A stretch of 64,000 nt of DNA from an uncultured delta proteobacterium (GTDB taxonomy: Bacteria > Desulfobacterota > Binatia > DP-6). The translations under genes were made by a program, and so were the position numbers. This document shows positions 4,730-12,548 of this stretch, piece by piece. Position 1 is the stretch's first letter. Every line of letters begins with the position of its first letter. The stretch lies in contig CAWFFN010000009.1 of assembly GCA_963815115.1 (NCBI GenBank), positions 928,001 to 992,000 on the forward strand. The letters are read 5' to 3'. Under the pieces are notes generated by a model, which saw nothing but the letters and a program-made list of their open reading frames with translations, was not told where the DNA came from and ran no database searches.

Positions 4730-4778
4730 TTGACAGGGAAGGGCAACCCGAAGTAATTGAAAGTGACTTTCAAAATCG
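4730..4778 (+). promoter_or_regulatory. Sigma70-type -35 (TTGACA, 4730-4735) and Fur box TTGAAAGT-G-ACTTTCAA (4757-4773)
   Basis: Perfect 8-1-8 AT-rich palindrome upstream of an FTR1 gene. A near-identical copy lies upstream of bfd. Confidence 0.85.
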
Positions 4779-4789
4779 AGCATCTCCGA

Positions 4790-6943
4790 ATGCCCGCACC
4801 CTCCCTGCTCCGCCGCCTCCTGCCGCTCGTCCTGACGCTCGGGTGCGTGGTCGCGCCGGTGTCCTCGCGCGCGGCGGGCGAGGACGCGACCGCCGACACG
4901 CGACGGCTTCTCACGCTGCTCGCGGGGATACGCGGCGAGTACCATGAGGCCTTCGACGCCCGGGGCAACGTCAGCCGCTCCATCGAGATCGAGGAAGCGA
5001 AGCTGCTGCTGGCCGAGGCGCGCGATCTGAACGCCCGCCTCACCCTGGTCGATCCCGCCGCGCTCGACGCCGTCGCCCGGGACATCGAGCAGCACGCTCC
5101 CGCGAGCGCGCTCGGGCCGCGGATCGAGGCGATCGCGACGGGCATCACGGCGCGCACCGGGATCCGCGACGACCCCCTCGCGCCGGAGCCGCCCTCCGCG
5201 GTGCGGGGACAGGTGGTCTTCAGCGAGAACTGCGCCGGCTGCCACGGGGCAACCGGTGACGGCGGAGGCACCGAAGCGCGCCGCCTGGGGTTGGCGCCCG
5301 CCAACTTCGCGAACCCCGCCTTCATGCGCGGCGAGACTCCGCGCGACCACTTCAACGTGGTCTCGCTCGGTCGCCGTCGCTCGGGCATGCCCGAATGGGC
5401 GGACGCTCTCAGCGTGCAACAGCGCTGGGACGCGGTCAGCTACCTCTGGACCCTGGCGCATCCCCGACCGGCGCTGCTCGAGGGCCAGCAGCTCTACCAG
5501 GAGAACTGCGCGGGCTGTCACGGTGCCGACGGGGCGGGACACGGCCCGCGGGCCGCCGCGCTGTCGGGCCGGATGCCCGACTTCCACCGGCCGGGAAGCC
5601 TGATCGATCGGACGGACACCCAGCTGCTGGGCGTCGTGAGCGACGGGGTCCCCGGCACCGCCATGGCCGCCTTCGGGGGAGCGCTGAGCGAGGACCAGCG
5701 CTGGAAGACCGTCGCCTGGGTGCGTGCCCTGTCGCTCGGCGGCGCGGAGCCGCCGGCGGCGGCGCCGGAGCGCGCGGAGAGGGCTACGGAGCCAGCGCAG
5801 CTCGCGGCCCGCACGAGCGCGGCGGTGGGAGAAGCCCACCGGCTGCTCGACGAGGCGATCGCAGCCCGCCGCCGCGGAGAGGCGGCGGCGGGAGCGATCG
5901 CCACCGACGCCTACATGCGCTTCGAGCCCTTCGAGAAGCGTCTCGGTGCGGTCGATCCGGGAGCGGTCGTCCGGGTCGAGGAGGGGTTCGTGCGCGTGCG
6001 TGGCGCGCTGCACGAGCCGGGCACCAGCGTGTCGCCCGCGCTGGAATCCGAGGTGGCCCAGCTGCACCGTCACCTCGATGCGGCGGTGGCCGTCCTCGGC
6101 GCGAGCGGAGGCGACTGGGCCCGCTTCGTCCAGTCCGCCGGCATCATCCTGCGCGAGGGCTTCGAGATCGTGCTGATCGTGGGCGCGCTGCTCGCGTACG
6201 TGCGCCGGAGCGGGCAGGTGTCGCTGGTCCGGCCGATTCACGCTGGCGTCGTCCTCGGCGTGCTCGCGAGCGTGGGCACCGCGGCGCTCCTCAGCACGGT
6301 GCTGCGGCTCTACCCGGGTGCGAGCGACGTGCTGGAGGGAGCGGCGATGCTGCTCGCCGCCGGCGTGCTCTTCTGGGTGAGCTACTGGCTCGTCGCGAAG
6401 GCCGGGGCCGACCGCTGGCAGCGCTTCATCCAGGGCAAGGTGAAGGACGCGATGGCCATGGGCAGCAGCACGGCGCTCGCCGTCGCCGCCTTCCTCGCGG
6501 TCTATCGCGAAGGCTTCGAGACCGTCCTCTTCTACCGCGCGCTGCTCGGTGGGGCGCCGACCGGCGACGTGATGATCGGTGCGGGATTCCTGTGCGGGCT
6601 CGTGGTGCTGGCCGCGCTGTGGGTCGGTCTGTCGCGGCTCGGGCTCCGCGTGCCGCTCGGACCGTTCTTCCTGGTGACGGGCGCGTTCCTCTACGCGATG
6701 GCGATCGTCTTCGCCGGCCGCGGCGTCTTCGAGCTGCAGGACGCGGGCGTCATCGGGGTCACGCCGGTGCCGTTCGTGCCGCGGATCCCGGTGCTCGGGC
6801 TCTTCCCGACGCTCGAAACCCTCGTCGCGCAGGGTGTGCTCGTCGCCGCGCTTCTCGTGGCCGGCGTGGTGACGTGGCGCCGCCGCCTCCATCCGCCCCG
6901 AGGTCTGGAGGCGCAGCTCGCGTCCGGAGGCGGCCGCGCGTGA
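4790..6943 (+). CDS. FTR1-family iron permease fused to two cytochrome c domains (PbrT-like architecture)
   Basis: Signal peptide, two ENCAGCHG heme-c motifs, and a C-terminal multi-TM domain with two REGFE iron-binding motifs. Confidence 0.92.
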   Translation: MPAPSLLRRLLPLVLTLGCVVAPVSSRAAGEDATADTRRLLTLLAGIRGEYHEAFDARGNVSRSIEIEEAKLLLAEARDLNARLTLVDPAALDAVARDIEQHAPASALGPRIEAIATGITARTGIRDDPLAPEPPSAVRGQVVFSENCAGCHGATGDGGGTEARRLGLAPANFANPAFMRGETPRDHFNVVSLGRRRSGMPEWADALSVQQRWDAVSYLWTLAHPRPALLEGQQLYQENCAGCHGADGAGHGPRAAALSGRMPDFHRPGSLIDRTDTQLLGVVSDGVPGTAMAAFGGALSEDQRWKTVAWVRALSLGGAEPPAAAPERAERATEPAQLAARTSAAVGEAHRLLDEAIAARRRGEAAAGAIATDAYMRFEPFEKRLGAVDPGAVVRVEEGFVRVRGALHEPGTSVSPALESEVAQLHRHLDAAVAVLGASGGDWARFVQSAGIILREGFEIVLIVGALLAYVRRSGQVSLVRPIHAGVVLGVLASVGTAALLSTVLRLYPGASDVLEGAAMLLAAGVLFWVSYWLVAKAGADRWQRFIQGKVKDAMAMGSSTALAVAAFLAVYREGFETVLFYRALLGGAPTGDVMIGAGFLCGLVVLAALWVGLSRLGLRVPLGPFFLVTGAFLYAMAIVFAGRGVFELQDAGVIGVTPVPFVPRIPVLGLFPTLETLVAQGVLVAALLVAGVVTWRRRLHPPRGLEAQLASGGGRA

Positions 6944-7497
6944 CGATCGCCATCCTGATGGCGATCGCCGTGCTCATGGCTTCACCGGGCCGGGCGCAGG
7001 AGGGCGTCTTCCTGAGCGAGGACCAGGCGCCGGCGGCGGTCTTTCCGGACGCCGACCACTTTGCGCGCTCCGAGGTCGAATCCACCCCGGCGCTCCGCGA
7101 GCGCATGAGCGCCCGGCTCGACGGCGTCCATCCTTCGTTGTGGGAGGAGCGCTACGTCGTCTTCACGGCGACGCGCGGTGCGACCCCGCTCGGCCAGGCC
7201 CTGGTCGTCGAGGAGATCGGCAAGCATCGGCCGATCACCTTCGTCGTCGGGCTCCGACCGGATCGCAGCGTCAACGACGTCGCCGTGATGGACTACCGGG
7301 AAGCCTACGGCGGCGAGGTCCGCAGCACGCGCTTCCTGCGCCAGTACCGCGGCAAGGGACCGGGCGACGCCCTGCGGCCCGGTGACGAGATCACCAGCAT
7401 CGCCGGTGCCACGCTGTCCGTGGAGGCGGCGAGCCGCGCCGTTCGCAAGGCCCAGGCCCTGTCGGCCGCGCTCGACCAGCCCGGAGGGCAGCGGTGA
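6940..7497 (+). CDS. Secreted FMN-binding (flavinylated) domain protein
   Basis: GTG overlaps the upstream stop. Signal peptide, IGKHRPITFVVG, YREAYGGEV, FLRQYRGK and flavinylation-like motif IAGATLS. Confidence 0.88.
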   Translation: MTIAILMAIAVLMASPGRAQEGVFLSEDQAPAAVFPDADHFARSEVESTPALRERMSARLDGVHPSLWEERYVVFTATRGATPLGQALVVEEIGKHRPITFVVGLRPDRSVNDVAVMDYREAYGGEVRSTRFLRQYRGKGPGDALRPGDEITSIAGATLSVEAASRAVRKAQALSAALDQPGGQR

Positions 7498-8495
7498 GCG
7501 CTCGGCTGCTGGCCGGGATGCTCGCCCTGCTGCCGCTGGCCGCGGCGGCTGCGCCGCAGACCCAGGTGCACTACGTCATGGGCACCTACCTGCGCATCAT
7601 CGCCGACGGCGACGGCGCGGCCGCGGGGATGGCGGCTTGCTTCCGGGAAGCCCGGCGACTCGAGCACGTCTTCTCGCGCTTCGACGCGACGAGCGAGCTG
7701 TCACGGCTGAACGCCGAGGCGGCCGAGGAGACGTGGCCCGCGAGCGACGACATGTCCCGCCTGCTCGATCGGTCGCGCGCGCTGGCCGACGCCACCGGCG
7801 GGGTGTTCGACGTCGCCGTCGGGCCGCTCACCGCGCTCTGGCGTCGCCCCGAGCCGCCCAGCCGGGCCGAGCTCGCGGCGGCGCGGGCGGCGACGGGCCG
7901 CGGCGCGTTTCGCGTGCGCGGCGGCCGCGTGACCCTGGCACCCGGAGCGCGGCTCGACCTCGACGGCGTCGCCAAGGGGTATGCCGTCGACGTGTGCGCC
8001 GGCCGCCTGCGCGCCGCCGGCGTGTCGCGCGCGCTGGTGAGCCTCGGCGAGAGCAGCCTCTACGCCCTCGGCACGCCTCCGGGTGCTGCCTACTGGCGGC
8101 TCGCGGTCCGCGGCCCGGATCCGGAGACCCAGGTCGGGTGGCTCGGGCTGCGTGACGTCGGCGCCTCCGTCTCCGCGACCTACGGGAGCACTGGACGACG
8201 CGCCGGAACGGTGGCGCACATCATCGACCCGCGCAGCGGGCGTCCGCTCGAGGACGACGCGGTGGCGGTCGTCGCCGCGTCCTCGGCCACCGACGCCGAG
8301 GGCTGGACCAAGGCGCTCCTCGTGTGGGGCCGGGGCGGAGTCGAGCGCGTTCGCCGGGGCGGCGCGAGGGCGGCGGTGCACGTGACCTCCGAAGCGGTCC
8401 GCGCCGACGTCGCGGGCGATGCCGGAGGCTCGGTCACGTGGGCGCGCTTGCCGGCGCCGCGGCGCATCGCCGCGCGCGAGGAGCCGCTCCGGTGA
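7494..8495 (+). CDS. apbE: FAD:protein FMN transferase
   Basis: VMGT, FSRFDATSELSRLN, TGGVFDVAVGPLTALW, LDLDGVAKGYAVD, HIIDPRSGRP, ATDAEGWTKAL. Confidence 0.92.
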   Translation: MSARLLAGMLALLPLAAAAAPQTQVHYVMGTYLRIIADGDGAAAGMAACFREARRLEHVFSRFDATSELSRLNAEAAEETWPASDDMSRLLDRSRALADATGGVFDVAVGPLTALWRRPEPPSRAELAAARAATGRGAFRVRGGRVTLAPGARLDLDGVAKGYAVDVCAGRLRAAGVSRALVSLGESSLYALGTPPGAAYWRLAVRGPDPETQVGWLGLRDVGASVSATYGSTGRRAGTVAHIIDPRSGRPLEDDAVAVVAASSATDAEGWTKALLVWGRGGVERVRRGGARAAVHVTSEAVRADVAGDAGGSVTWARLPAPRRIAAREEPLR

Positions 8496-9004
8496 GGGTG
8501 TTCGGCTCTCCGGGCTTCCTCCTGAGCGACGCGCGCCTCGAGGTGCGGCTGGTCTACACCGGCTTCCTGGTGCTGGCGCTCGTCGGCATGGCGACCATGG
8601 CGCTCTTCCAGGTGAAGGCCATCGGCCCGGGGCCGGCGCAGATCGCCGCCTACTTCCGGGGCGGCGAGCGCAACGGCGCGATGACCTTCCAGAAGACGTT
8701 CCGCGAGCTGATCGAGCTGACGCACTTTCACGCCTTCGTGATGGGCCTGGTCTACCTGGTGATGGCGCACCTCGTGCTCGCGACCAGCGCCTCCGATACC
8801 GTCAAGCGCTTTGCCATCGTCCTCGCGTTCGCCGGCCTCGCCGGCGACGTGCTGGGCGTCTGGCTGATCCGCTACGTCTCGGGCGCGTTCGCGTATACGC
8901 AGGTGCTGAGCTGGATCGCCGAGTGGCTCGGCTTTTCGGCGTTCGTCTACTACCCGCTGAGAGAGATGTGGTTCCGTGAAGGACGCGGGGCGCGAACAAG
9001 CTGA
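8492..9004 (+). CDS. His-containing integral membrane protein (about 4 TM), function unknown
   Basis: GTG overlaps the apbE stop. Hydrophobic helices and motif KTFRELIELTHFHAFVMGLVYLVMAHL. Confidence 0.8.
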   Translation: MRVFGSPGFLLSDARLEVRLVYTGFLVLALVGMATMALFQVKAIGPGPAQIAAYFRGGERNGAMTFQKTFRELIELTHFHAFVMGLVYLVMAHLVLATSASDTVKRFAIVLAFAGLAGDVLGVWLIRYVSGAFAYTQVLSWIAEWLGFSAFVYYPLREMWFREGRGARTS

Positions 9005-9149
9005 GCACGATCTGCGCTGCCAGTGCGGGAGCCTGATGGCTCGCGTCACCGAAGCGGGCATCGAGCTCAAGTGCCGGCGCTGCAAGCGCGTCGTCGTGGT
9101 ACCGGTCAGGGGGATGACCGGCGACTGGATCGAGGTGTCGATGCGCTGA
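8976..9149 (+). CDS. 57-aa Cys4 zinc-ribbon protein, Mu Com-like (not in the ORF track)
   Basis: Manual translation: MKDAGREQAEHDLRCQCGSLMARVTEAGIELKCRRCKRVVVVPVRGMTGDWIEVSMR*. Pattern CxCG..LxR...IELKCxRCK. Start codon uncertain. Confidence 0.75.
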   Translation: MKDAGREQAEHDLRCQCGSLMARVTEAGIELKCRRCKRVVVVPVRGMTGDWIEVSMR

Positions 9150-9192
9150 ACCGGCGCGACATCCGAGCCAGCGGCCAGCGGTCGACGAACCC

Positions 9193-9243
9193 AGAGCCCG
9201 GAGCGCGCGCACGGCGGAGCGCGCGTCCGGGCTCTTTCCGTTT
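9193..9243 (+). terminator. GC-rich hairpin with an interrupted U-rich tail (putative intrinsic terminator or attenuator) before the porin gene
   Basis: AGAGCCCGGA (9193-9202) pairs with TCCGGGCTCT (9226-9235), and CGCGCGC (9204-9210) with GCGCGCG (9219-9225). 8-nt loop, followed by TTCCGTTT. Confidence 0.6.
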
Positions 9244-9258
9244 GGACAAGGGGGATCG

Positions 9259-10914
9259 ATGGACAGAGGACGGTTGTGCGTCGCACTCGCGATGGCGGCG
9301 CTGGTGGTCGGGAACGGTACGGCGGTGGCCGAGAGCCTCGAGCAGCGCGTCGAGCGCATGGAGAAGGAGCTGCAGGAGCTCAAGTCGGAGCTCCGGCGGC
9401 GCGATGCGGCCGATCGCCGGCGGGCGGCCGAGGAGTCGAAGCGCAGGCCCGCCGAGACGGTGGCGGCACCGCCGCCGCCGCCGTCGAAGCCGGGCGCCGT
9501 CGCGGCCGCCCCCGCGCCCGAGCCCGGCACCGAGGCGGCGCGCACGGCCAAGGCGGGCGAGAGCGAGAAGGGCGGCTACCTGCCGAGCTCGCTCCGCGCC
9601 ATCACCGACCGGGTGAAGGTCGGCGGCTACGGCTCGATCCGCTTCGAGGCCAACAGCAACCCGGCCGACAACAACACCTTCACCTACCGCCGCTTCGTGC
9701 TGACCACCGATGCCAACATCGCCCCCCGGCTGCACGCGTACATGGAGCTCGAGCTGGAGCGCTTCCGCGAATTGGAAATCGAGAAGACCCTGCAGCCGAG
9801 CGATGGCGGCCTCGCCGCGACCCAGGCCGTCGAAGCCACCAACGGCTCGGAGATCTCGCTCGAGCAGGCGTGGCTGCAGTACGACGTCCAGGACTGGCTC
9901 AAGTTCCGGGGCGGCGCGGTGCTGGTCCCGGTCGGCCGCTTCAACCTGCACCACGACGACGACCTCTGGGATCTGCCGCGCCGCTCGCTGGTGGATCGCG
10001 GGGTGCCCGTGCTGCCCGTTCCCGCCGCCTGGGACGAGCTGGGCATGGGCTTCCTCGGCGACGTGCCGCTCGGCGACGACATGACGCTCAACTACCAGAC
10101 CTACGTCGTCAACGGCGTGACCCTCGACTACGAGTTCGAGCAGATCGCCCAGACCCGCTTCCCGGACACGCCGCTGCAGGCGATCGAAGTCGAGGTGCAG
10201 CCGTTCACCGGCACCTTCTCGAACGACGTCAAGAACGCGAAGTCCTTCACCGGGCGACTCGCGCTGAGCCCCGCGCTGGGCCACGAGGTGGGCGCCTCCT
10301 GGTACTACGGCCGCTACACGCCGAGCTTCCTGCCCAGCGAGAGCCTGTATTCTCTCGCCGGCGACTGGAAGAGCATCTTCGGGCACTTCGAGGTCGAGGG
10401 CGAGTACGTCTTCACGCACTTCGGCGGCGTCAAGAACGTCGCCACCGGTCTGGCGCGGGTCGCGCGCGAGCAGGAGTCGGAGTTCGAGAACCCGACGCTC
10501 GAGAGCGAGGTCGAGTTCGAGCTCGCCAACATCGCGACGAGCAAGCAGGGATACTGGCTCGACTTCCGCTATCGCTTCTGGCCCGACTTCCTCACCAAGA
10601 GCTTCCTCGGCTGGGAGTTCGAGAACCCGCAGCTCGTCGCCGTGCTGCGCGGCGAGCAGGTGTGGCTGAACGGCTTGGTGGAGGAAGCGGCGTTCGGCGG
10701 GGGCCGGCTCGTCTCGTTCGAGACCGACGACCGGCGGGTCGACCGCATCACCGTCGGCCTGTCGTATCGTCCGGTGCCGCTCGTCGTCTTCCAGCTCGCC
10801 TACGAGTACACGCTCACCAACAGCGGCAAGAGTCTGTCCAGCGTCACGAACTTCATCCCGGGCAACGTCGATCATCAGAGCGCATTCCTGTTCGGCGCCG
10901 CCTTCGGATTCTGA
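9259..10914 (+). CDS. Outer-membrane beta-barrel porin-like protein with N-terminal coiled coil
   Basis: Signal peptide, coiled coil, Pro-rich linker, amphipathic strands (VGGYG, LEQAWLQY, VPVGRFNLHHD) and C-terminal Phe (GAAFGF). Confidence 0.8.
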   Translation: MDRGRLCVALAMAALVVGNGTAVAESLEQRVERMEKELQELKSELRRRDAADRRRAAEESKRRPAETVAAPPPPPSKPGAVAAAPAPEPGTEAARTAKAGESEKGGYLPSSLRAITDRVKVGGYGSIRFEANSNPADNNTFTYRRFVLTTDANIAPRLHAYMELELERFRELEIEKTLQPSDGGLAATQAVEATNGSEISLEQAWLQYDVQDWLKFRGGAVLVPVGRFNLHHDDDLWDLPRRSLVDRGVPVLPVPAAWDELGMGFLGDVPLGDDMTLNYQTYVVNGVTLDYEFEQIAQTRFPDTPLQAIEVEVQPFTGTFSNDVKNAKSFTGRLALSPALGHEVGASWYYGRYTPSFLPSESLYSLAGDWKSIFGHFEVEGEYVFTHFGGVKNVATGLARVAREQESEFENPTLESEVEFELANIATSKQGYWLDFRYRFWPDFLTKSFLGWEFENPQLVAVLRGEQVWLNGLVEEAAFGGGRLVSFETDDRRVDRITVGLSYRPVPLVVFQLAYEYTLTNSGKSLSSVTNFIPGNVDHQSAFLFGAAFGF

Positions 10915-10925
10915 GGAGATGTGAA

Positions 10926-12548
10926 ATGTCGACGATCAAGCTCCTGCTCCTGCTGCTCGTGCTCCTCGGCCCCGCCGTCGCGCGGGCCGACGACGACGAG
11001 GGCGGCGGAGAGGAGGCCGATCCCCCCGAGGTGGTGATCGGCGAGCGGCTCTTCCTGGAGACACGCTTCGCCCAGTTCTTCCAGGCCCACGCCGGCGGCA
11101 ACATGAACGCGGTGCTCGCGCAGGGCGATCCGGTGATGAACACGCTCGATACGACGGCGGGGCCGATCGCCGCTCCGTTCCCGGGCGCCGGCATGAACTG
11201 CCGGCAGTGTCACCTGGTCGACGACGCCAAGGAGACGCCCGGGGGCGGCAATCGCAGCTATGCCGACTTCGCGCGCCACAGCCCCATCCCGGCACGCGAG
11301 GACGGCCGCACGATGACGCCGCGCAACTCCCCGCCGCTGGTCAACGCCAGCCTCGCGCGCGGGCGACCGTTCTTCCTGCACTTCGACGGCGAGTTCCCCT
11401 CCACCGCCGCCCTCGTCGAGGGCACCCTCACCGGACGCAACTTCGGCTGGCTGCCGAACGAGCGCGGGCAGGCCGTGGCGCACATCGCCGCCGTGATCCG
11501 GGGCGACGACGGCACGGGTCAGCTGGCGGCCGACAACGGCGGCGCGTACCGCCGCGTGCTCGGTGGCAGCGACCCGTCCATCCCGAAGGAGCTCCGGCTG
11601 CCGAAGCGGTTTCGCATCGACGTCGATCGCGCGAGCGACGATCAGATCCTGCGCGCGGTGGCGCGCCTGATCTCCGCCTACGTCGAGTCGCTCGAGTTCG
11701 AGAACGCGTCACCCTACGACCGCTTCCTCGAGAAGAACGGCCTGCCGACCGAGCCGCGCGAGTTCGAGTCGACGGCCGACTACCTGAAGCGGCTCAAATT
11801 CCTGATGGGCGAGCACGGGGACCCCGAGCCGATCACCGATGCGGACGGCGCCTTCCAGCTGCACGAGCAGCAGTTCGTCTTCGGCGCGGACGAGCTCGAG
11901 GGCCTGCGCATCTTCCTGGACCGCGGGCGTGGCAACTGCGTCTCCTGCCATCCGCCGCCGGACTTCACCGACTTCAGCTTCCACAACACGGGCGTGGCGC
12001 AGGAGGAGTACGACGCGCTGCACGGCGCAGGCAGCTTCGCGGCCCTCGCCATTCCCGACCCGGCGATCCGCAAGGCCGATCCCGATGCCTTCCTGCCGGC
12101 GACGGCCCTTCATCCCGCCGCGCTGGAGCCCTTCCGGGCGATCCCGGCGGCGGATGCGCCGGGACGCACCGACCTGGGCATGTGGAATCTGCTGGAGAAC
12201 CCGGACTATTCCGGCCGCACGTACCAGCGTCACCTCGAGCGCATGGTGTGCGCGTCGCAGGGGTCGCCGGCGAGCTGCCGCCGGGCGCCGGACGCGCTCC
12301 TCGCCGCCTCGATCGCCCTCTTCAAGACGCCCGGGCTACGCGACCTCGGGCACTCCGGACCGTATCTGCACAACGGCTCGAAGGACGCCCTCGAGGACGT
12401 CGTGCGGTTCTACGCCAACGCGTCGGCCCTGGCTCGGGCAGGCCAGCTGCGCAACGGCGCGCGTGAGCTGCGGGACATGCACATCGGCGACGGTGACGTC
12501 GTCCCCCTGGCGGCGTTCCTGCGGGCCCTCAACGAGGACTACGAGTAG
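10926..12548 (+). CDS. Di-heme cytochrome c peroxidase/MauG-family protein (atypical)
   Basis: GAGGAG RBS, signal peptide, IGERLF, CRQCH, RNSPPLVN, GNCVSCH, FHNTG, FKTPGLRDL...PYLHNG. Confidence 0.88.
   Translation: MSTIKLLLLLLVLLGPAVARADDDEGGGEEADPPEVVIGERLFLETRFAQFFQAHAGGNMNAVLAQGDPVMNTLDTTAGPIAAPFPGAGMNCRQCHLVDDAKETPGGGNRSYADFARHSPIPAREDGRTMTPRNSPPLVNASLARGRPFFLHFDGEFPSTAALVEGTLTGRNFGWLPNERGQAVAHIAAVIRGDDGTGQLAADNGGAYRRVLGGSDPSIPKELRLPKRFRIDVDRASDDQILRAVARLISAYVESLEFENASPYDRFLEKNGLPTEPREFESTADYLKRLKFLMGEHGDPEPITDADGAFQLHEQQFVFGADELEGLRIFLDRGRGNCVSCHPPPDFTDFSFHNTGVAQEEYDALHGAGSFAALAIPDPAIRKADPDAFLPATALHPAALEPFRAIPAADAPGRTDLGMWNLLENPDYSGRTYQRHLERMVCASQGSPASCRRAPDALLAASIALFKTPGLRDLGHSGPYLHNGSKDALEDVVRFYANASALARAGQLRNGARELRDMHIGDGDVVPLAAFLRALNEDYE

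Follow-up and report, generated by a model that had tools for sequence, protein, structure and literature searches.

A small zinc-ribbon gene in an iron-uptake cluster

The window analysed here is a stretch of 64,000 nucleotides (nt) from an uncultured delta proteobacterium of the Binatia (contig CAWFFN010000009.1, positions 928,001 to 992,000), and the subject of this report is a short gene on its plus strand that encodes a Com-like zinc ribbon of 57 amino acids (aa), together with the conserved RNA element that follows it. The gene (8976..9149) runs from GTG 8976 to TGA 9149, and its product carries two cysteine pairs, CQC and CRRC, in the motifs R-C-x-C-G-S-L-M-A-R and E-L-K-C-R-R-C-K-R. 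It overlaps the 3' end of a membrane-protein gene (stop 9004) by 29 nt and is separated by a spacer of 109 nt from a porin gene. Within this spacer, on the same strand, lies the element (9167..9204, delimited by covariance model R1 and alignment A2), which comprises box 1 (GGCCAGCGGT, 9173-9182), box 2 (ACCCAGAGCC, 9189-9198), a covarying helix P2 (9180-9182 with 9189-9191) and a putative helix P1 (9173-9175 with 9196-9198). A terminator-like, GC-rich hairpin on the plus strand (9193..9235), whose 5' arm starts inside box 2 (AGAGCC), is followed by an interrupted U-tract (TTCCGTTTGGA, 9236..9246) and by the Shine-Dalgarno (SD)-like site of the porin gene (AAGGGGGA, 9248..9255, read from the sequence).

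The cluster begins just downstream of a perfect 8-1-8 palindrome resembling a Fur box (4757..4773, no strand assigned), near which there is a TTGACA hexamer (4731-4736). Its genes, all on the plus strand, encode a fusion of cytochrome c with the iron permease FTR1 (4790..6943, ATG 4790; Pfam FTR1 2.5e-25, Cytochrome_CBB3 3.6e-25, Cytochrom_C 1.8e-23), an FMN-binding domain protein (6940..7497, start GTG 6940; Pfam FMN_bind 1.1e-05), an ApbE-family flavin transferase (7494..8495; Pfam ApbE 1.3e-51) and the membrane protein (8492..9004, start read as GTG 8492), which is syntenic in loci L002-L006 and belongs to no named family, Pfam and NCBIfam scans having given nothing above cut-off. Beyond the zinc-ribbon gene there are a porin-like outer-membrane protein (9259..10914, ATG 9259), whose translation has a signal peptide and an N-terminal coiled coil and for which no Pfam match was found, and an MbnH/MauG-like di-haem enzyme with two CxxCH motifs (10926..12548; Pfam CCP_MauG 8.7e-06). 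The base composition of the region and genome is approximately 70% GC, and most long open reading frames (ORFs) of the window are therefore frame shadows; those at 9276-12548 and 8180-9286 (-) are of this kind and are not genes, the real genes there being those of the porin and the di-haem enzyme.

Comparison with its relatives shows the 57-aa ORF to be a real gene under protein-level selection, as the first-pass annotation of this DNA had supposed. A search among short proteins returned 75 homologues at E<=0.01, and a profile of 36 homologues recovered 1172 cluster representatives at E<=1e-3 and 561 at E<=1e-10; the protein alignment (A1) contains 36 of the 76 available sequences, that is, the 75 matches and the query. 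Among 78 distinct core sequences, the fractions differing at codon positions 1, 2 and 3 were 0.269, 0.167 and 0.565, a 3.4-fold excess at third over second positions, and invariant residues are encoded by up to 6 synonymous codons. The residues ELKCRRCK are invariant by construction, the loci having been fetched through that peptide, but the other invariant residues are not so fixed. C15/C17 and C33/C36 are invariant in the family alignment, and a start of V/M-K-D is common to the closest homologues. The same position of the gene, between the membrane protein and the porin, is kept in genomes of the same family (L001-L006), and the record titles of family loci extend to Binatia, Myxococcota (including Sorangium), Nitrospirota (including Manganitrophus), Rokubacteria, Acidobacteriota and Planctomycetota.

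No Pfam, NCBIfam or Rfam model covers the gene family or the element, and scans of the 57-aa protein gave only sub-threshold matches to DUF6510 and YedD (NCBIfam, 0 families). An AF2 model of the protein is a three-stranded ribbon of moderate confidence (pLDDT 69.7), for which Foldseek found nothing in the PDB at E<=0.001. Sequence searches of the PDB with A1 and with phage Mu Com gave only weak generic zinc-ribbon matches, with no Com structure among the entries. A predicted complex of two protein copies with Zn scored 0.23, below the mark of 0.42, which is evidence neither way. Four natural fusions (P0088, P0093, P0094 and P0101) carry two Com-like ribbons in one protein of 103-127 aa, which fits with two boxes per RNA site. 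An extra CxHCG motif precedes the ribbon at the N-terminal side in L049, L096 and L108, and an extra CxxC follows it at the C-terminal side in L046 and L052; these motifs could be a second metal site.

A distant likeness to Com of phage Mu, the relationship proposed at first reading, is supported by profile comparison: when A1 was compared by hhalign with Mu Com, whose sequence was translated from the phage record, the probability was 83% and E 8.9e-6 over 31 columns, with all four cysteines aligned. The motif IE[IL][RK]C[PR]RCKR is common to the family and Mu Com, and several homologues carry the JGI name 'phage FluMu protein Com'. The nearest entries in the ESM Atlas are hypothetical proteins, a PF10122 Com-family cluster appearing at rank 15 (score 0.91). 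We take the family to be a branch of the Com-like zinc ribbons that stands apart and at a distance from Mu Com and in which the first knuckle is CxC.

A conserved RNA element that accompanies the gene

A sample of 80 loci was fetched through the exact peptide ELKCRRCK, and a loose pattern of the element was found within 400 nt after the gene stop in 46 of them. The consensus of the relatives' DNA 3' of the stop is roughly A-G-M-G-G-C-C-M-G-M-G-G-Y, a short loop and R-C-C-C-M-G-M-G-C-C-C, and describes an element of approximately 30 nt with two CCMGMG boxes around a covarying 3-bp helix (P2, 3-4 bp). Alignment A2 (41 instances, MAFFT) consists of the window and 40 of the 45 distinct pattern matches; L034, L035 and L044 (long inserts), L072 (wrong pattern match) and L058 (shifted match) were dropped. 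In the alignment of 41, 99.6% of cells pair (99.2% of P2 cells), and P2 is composed of GC28/AU8/GU5 and UA22/CG13/UG5. The covariation score of P2 was reached by 0 of 500 shuffles, and all slid controls collapse. A compensatory change (GAT/ATC versus GGT/ACC) separates the related loci L069 and L094. There are 26 instances outside the model; of about 20 inspected by eye, almost all retain P2, but in L042 it contains an A-G mismatch, and L074 could not be fitted. The downstream repeats and covarying stem that the first-pass annotation had suggested seeking in homologues are thus present.

Of 76 model matches in the 80 loci, 74 are on the strand of the gene, including all 70 with E<=0.19, and this bias together with the G-U and U-G pairs of P2 indicates that the element is an RNA feature. 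Consideration was given to an ECF or sigma-54 promoter reading of 'GAACC...', which was rejected since the conserved part stops before any -10 region and the strand and the G-U pairs point to RNA. The whole 6.9-Mb genome contains one strong match to model R1, the window element (47.2 bits), and one candidate at 25.7 bits. When 8000-10500 was compared with Rfam 15 (cmscan, E<=10), the only matches were weak and unrelated, one at 8494 and one at 9911. The boxes are alike across loci, whereas the hairpins behind them differ in sequence.

The first-pass annotation had described five CCRGMGS heptamers in the spacer. All five are present on the plus strand, but two of them are not part of the conserved element: those at 9168-9174, 9175-9181 and 9191-9197 belong to it, that at 9198-9204 is merely the base of the hairpin, and the closest relatives do not conserve that at 9151-9157. 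The third letter varies between A and C (M) and not between A and G. The pattern CCRGMGS is common in the window (446 matches on both strands versus 356 +/- 17 in shuffles) and is by itself weak evidence. Five equal heptamers were accordingly replaced by two or three CCMGMG/AGMGG units around the covarying helix. An extra GC-rich hairpin of approximately 30 nt is present in the inter-box loop at L034:6213-6280, L035:6208-6278 and L044:6205-6269, where a GAC/GTC inner helix is kept. In L009, L011 and L012, which are of one genus, the gene is present and is followed by a divergent, CCAG-rich stretch that looks related by eye but is missed by model R1; this stretch could represent a variant target.

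No genome without the gene was found to have the element. When 151 genomes were sampled evenly across the class, 32 had the element (E<=0.01), all among the 53 gene carriers (0 of the 98 others), and in a set of 41 relatives it is present (E<=0.05) in 10 genomes, all among the 15 carriers (0 of the 26 others); related genomes are not independent and the E-values of the model are rough, but the pattern is one-sided even so. Within the class sample, 32 of 37 element matches lie on the same strand as the gene and no more than 1.3 kb downstream of it; 3 are at 4-5 kb downstream and 2 elsewhere. The genes upstream and downstream vary between loci, leaving the small gene as the only constant partner of the element.

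The candidate at 25.7 bits (E 0.19) is in an intergenic spacer of the source genome (contig C7:867367-867402, plus strand, locus L112). The gene that it precedes encodes a secreted protein with 47% identity (E 7e-86) to the product of the gene behind gene and element in L043, and the SD-AUG spacer of this secreted-protein gene and box 2 of the candidate are complementary. A second element before such a gene suggests action in trans. A weakly ChuX/HutX-like ORF (Pfam E 4.6e-4, under the cut-off) is located upstream of it, as is a stretch resembling a Fur box that was noted by eye. Another cluster (L060:5908-8620) contains two paralogous Com-like genes, the second of which reads EIKCRRCK, and three elements, in a setting of cupredoxin, haem-binding and exbB-exbD-tonB-receptor genes; its second element precedes the second gene copy, an arrangement that allows autoregulation, and its third precedes exbB-exbD-tonB-receptor.

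The genes placed after the element support the iron-uptake setting, and the linkage to metal-transport genes raised at first reading was found: porins, ExbB/TonB, TonB receptors, cupredoxin and haem enzymes all occur there. Among 46 relatives' genes scanned with Pfam, the matches were BBP2 (4), DUF6662 (4), MotA_ExbB (3), LbtU siderophore porin (2), Cupredoxin_1 (2), CbiX (2) and CCP_MauG (2), with one each of TonB receptor, FeoA, multicopper oxidase and siderophore-type DABA decarboxylase. The iron operon with a layer of Fur control, which had also been part of the earlier reading, is in keeping with the FTR1 cluster and with Fur-box-like sites in the family. In 33 of 80 loci, sites that agree with the E. 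coli Fur consensus (foreign to these phyla) at 13 or more of its 19 positions are present 200-450 nt before the gene stop, at a density of 2.44 per kb versus 0.14 per kb elsewhere in the same loci, a 17-fold difference. By the same measure the best 19-mer at the palindrome of the window (4759-4777) matches at 12 of 19 positions, and versions matching at 13 are found at the same operon start in L032, L034, L035, L040 and L044. Several Fur-like sites are directly before elements. Fur would presumably control the module.

Inhibitory helices and a proposed mode of action

The hairpin at 9193-9235, its tail (TTCCGTTT) and the distance of 23 nt from its stem to the porin ATG are as the first-pass annotation had described them. 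The stem consists of 10+7 = 17 bp with a one-base bulge, has a predicted energy of -36.0 kcal/mol (versus -5.8 kcal/mol for the element's own helices) and is present in both the minimum free energy (MFE) and the centroid structure. Since 23 nt leave no room for a separate promoter, the porin mRNA must come via read-through. Behind the equivalent hairpins of L031-L033 there is a canonical U-tract (T6-T7). In 36 of 67 instances a script flagged a hairpin that begins within the element and carries a T-tract, and 4 of these hairpins enclose the SD/AUG instead; the 67 are element matches at E<=0.05 after removal of the duplicate L066. The longest complement of box 2 downstream has a median of 8 nt versus 6.0 for shuffled boxes and is at least 7 nt in 45 of 66 instances (L045, at a contig end, being also removed). 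Such a complement is located at the SD/AUG in L057, L105, L061, L091 and the second site of the source genome, which is suggestive of pairing between box 2 and the SD/AUG region where there is no terminator.

Other readings of the leader fared less well. The earlier proposal that the 3' arm of the hairpin switches to pair with the ribosome-binding site (CTCTTTCC with GGACAAGGG) found no comparative support; this pairing is absent from the full-length MFE structure and forms only in a fold of the 3' arm that leaves out the 5' arm, as with the terminator open (-7.3 kcal/mol). Classical ribosome-mediated attenuation was rejected, because the gene stop is 44 nt before the stem and some elements are more than 1 kb from the gene. 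The hairpin contains two direct copies of GGAGCGCGCG (9200-9209 and 9216-9225), a repeat that is probably incidental, its CGCGCG core being self-complementary. The sigma-70/terminator scanner missed promoter-like stretches that were seen by eye in L089 and L060, and so no promoter claim is made for those loci. A search of sequencing runs returned no RNA run; its 20 rows are DNA or contigs of soil-type metagenomes with at most 0.30 of the words.

On balance it is probable that the zinc ribbon activates the downstream genes by binding the element and so either blocking the terminator or freeing the start site. Transcription of the leader would start upon Fur derepression, and the 57-aa gene would give rise to a small RNA-binding zinc ribbon made from the same or a neighbouring transcript. 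Because the RNA alone is predicted to fold into an inhibitory helix, the default state would be off: the unbound leader would form the terminator or, at other loci, a helix in which box 2 is the 5' arm and the SD/AUG of the next gene is covered. The zinc ribbon would bind both boxes, brought together by P2 and perhaps by P1, and would hold box 2 so that neither helix could form; the downstream iron-uptake genes, in the window those of the porin and the MbnH-like di-haem enzyme, would then be expressed. With the gene or the element located behind Fur-box-like promoters, the module would constitute a feed-forward activation step after Fur derepression, in which the logic of Mu Com would be copied and extended to transcription termination. 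We infer the physical binding, its activating sign, Fur control and the stoichiometry from the sequences; the observation from which the analysis started is confirmed, and its interpretation is supported in part.

The zinc ribbon might instead bind the element without activating, as a repressor or stabiliser that promotes termination, blocks translation or alters the stability or processing of the mRNA. RNA-binding attenuation proteins that promote termination exist (TRAP, PyrR), the sign of regulation is itself a proposal, and an element 5' of a gene copy, as in L060, L048 and L051, would suit negative as well as positive autoregulation. We consider this unlikely, because the boxes overlap the 5' arm of the terminator or of the SD/AUG-pairing helix, and not an antiterminator or the SD; the element ends at least 25 nt before the start codon and never overlaps the SD in the instances read. 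By the predicted energies, moreover, the unbound RNA is already in the terminator, to which a termination-favouring factor would add little.

The co-occurrence of gene and element bears on another account, to which we give a similarly low probability: that the element works as a small riboswitch, or that some other factor recognises it (a metal ion, a small RNA or a different protein), with the zinc-ribbon gene merely co-regulated and its product doing other work, for example as a metal chaperone or storage peptide. Like metal riboswitches, the element is located in 5' leaders of metal-uptake genes, the extra Cys/His motifs of some members would suit metal handling, and binding of the element by the protein is a prediction. 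A self-sufficient riboswitch, however, need not track a gene, and the element is confined to gene carriers (32 of 53 versus 0 of 98; 10 of 15 versus 0 of 26), with the small gene its sole constant neighbour. Furthermore, 6 bp in approximately 26 nt offer little for a ligand pocket, the Rfam scan of 8000-10500 gave no relevant match, and the protein keeps the basic KCRRCKR face that it has in common with the RNA-binding Mu Com.

Far less probable is that nothing here is regulatory, the hairpin simply terminating an operon in the usual way and the letters being conserved through common terminator sequence or base composition: matches to the degenerate heptamer abound and GC-rich hairpins are common in a genome of 70% GC, and the z-score of the 126-nt fold is only -1.64, but the boxes are conserved across records whose titles name at least six phyla, while the hairpins behind them differ, they are also present where there is no terminator, the model gives a single strong match in 6.9 Mb, and the porin mRNA has to run through the hairpin. 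It is equally hard to credit that the element works at the DNA level, serving as operator or promoter for the 'Com family DNA-binding transcriptional regulator' of an automatic ESM Atlas cluster name, even with some elements directly after promoter-like and Fur-like sequences, because 74 of 76 matches are on the genes' strand, the G-U and U-G pairs of P2 (5 each) would be C-A mismatches on the other strand and meaningless in duplex DNA, the element overlaps RNA hairpins with U-tracts, and Mu Com is described as an RNA binder (passages of PMC6483171).

Several observations weigh against activation by the zinc ribbon through the element. At E<=0.01 the element is lacking in 21 of the 53 gene-carrying genomes (~40%), and at E<=0.05 it has no match in 21 of the 80 loci; in Sorangium it is approximately 11 kb from the gene and on the other strand. 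The sampling is biased, since the loci were fetched by peptide, the model instances were selected by pattern and related genomes are not independent. P1 (GGC/GCC) is invariant in A2 and broken in L088; as it never varies it has no covariation support and remains a proposal. The U-tract of the window is interrupted, and the hairpin was missed by a simple terminator scanner. The script mentioned above finds no terminator in about half of the instances, and in many of these box 2 pairs only weakly with the start region; of 66 instances, only 23 reach p<=0.05 versus shuffled boxes. The GAG of box 2 varies between instances (GCG, ACG and AAG were seen). As to the identity of the protein, the Pfam model of Mu-like Com does not recognise it: PF10122 (Zn_ribbon_Com) gives no match to the 57-aa protein at E<=1 and matches 1 of 36 relatives at E 0.031, below gathering. 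A tblastn search against 50,697 phage records gave no match, and the first Cys pair is CxC, versus CxxC in Mu Com.

A further proposal, which we regard as rather unlikely, is that the Cys4 site is a sensor: the right metal (Zn versus Fe(II), or an Fe-S centre) would be needed for folding and RNA binding, or filling with iron would abolish binding. The module would then be a metal-gated bacterial counterpart of the eukaryotic iron regulatory protein/iron-responsive element (IRP/IRE) system that reads the metal state after Fur has opened the promoter. The extra CxHCG and CxxC motifs of some myxobacterial members and the two-ribbon fusions fit a sensor design but do not show it, and sensing of Zn or Fe by the Cys4 site, as imagined in the first-pass annotation, is conjecture.

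Comparison with known systems and possible significance

Mu Com binds a short hairpin with CC(N)2-3GAG that adjoins the translation-inhibition structure of mom (passages of PMC6483171), and CCCAGAG of box 2 fits this word, binding being here a prediction. Both proteins are small Cys4 zinc ribbons (57 versus 62 aa) with a basic C-x-R-C-K-R knuckle, and both genes are directly 5' of the regulated gene. The target in each system is a short hairpin beside or overlapping an inhibitory RNA helix, as judged from sequence in the present case, and the outcome expected of both, here as a proposal, is activation. In contrast to Mu Com, the window family is chromosomal and non-phage, with FTR1, ApbE, porin and MbnH genes for neighbours, and is located in Fur-type iron-uptake clusters of Binatia, Myxococcota, Nitrospirota and others. 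Its predicted inhibitory helix is a transcription terminator in approximately half of the instances, and not a start-codon helix, and its target is bipartite (two boxes), with several targets per cluster and some apparently in trans.

Pseudomonas also has chromosomal, often unannotated Com homologues of approximately 60 aa directly before cargo genes, and their regulatory role is stated to be unexplored (PMC6240691). The likeness is that of a small chromosomal gene before cargo, which in Pseudomonas consists of llpA bacteriocin, tailocin cargo or levansucrase genes. The Pseudomonas proteins, however, belong to PF10122 and are found in phage-derived or bacteriocin contexts, and the passages on them in PMC6240691 describe neither a conserved RNA element nor a link to metal uptake. 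The literature searched, papers' supplementary homologue lists being outside the search, describes no Com-like family in iron uptake, no such RNA element and no antitermination of the Com type; the first-pass annotation had likewise known of no such module in metal uptake.

Protein-dependent antitermination is known from BglG/SacY/LicT with their RAT sites, from ANTAR regulators and from HutP. The RNA site of a dedicated protein overlaps the 5' arm of a terminator in the leader in these systems and, with the protein site a predicted one, here also; because of the overlap, binding and termination would exclude each other. The resemblance does not extend to the proteins: no CAT/PRD, ANTAR or HutP domain was found by Pfam in the 57-aa protein or in 36 relatives, and the putative binder here is a 57-aa zinc ribbon with no evident sensing domain. 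Post-transcriptional layers of iron control are known from Fur with RyhB-type small RNAs and from eukaryotic IRP/IRE. By analogy, these also place a second control step on the mRNAs of iron genes, and the protein of IRP/IRE recognises a small hairpin, but neither has any sequence or structural relation to the window module, for which dependence on iron is hypothetical.

If the proposed mechanism is true, a large family of tiny, mostly unannotated zinc ribbons, numbering 1172 cluster representatives, would be RNA-binding activators, and the Fur regulon of these phyla would gain a post-initiation step affecting porins, TonB systems and redox proteins of haem or copper type. The mechanism of Mu Com, so far that of one phage gene pair, would extend to cellular physiology and to transcription antitermination. 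The compact pair of protein and RNA (57 aa and approximately 30 nt) would also be a possible genetic part. Thus, the module would represent an undescribed on-switch, layered over ordinary iron control and spanning several bacterial phyla.

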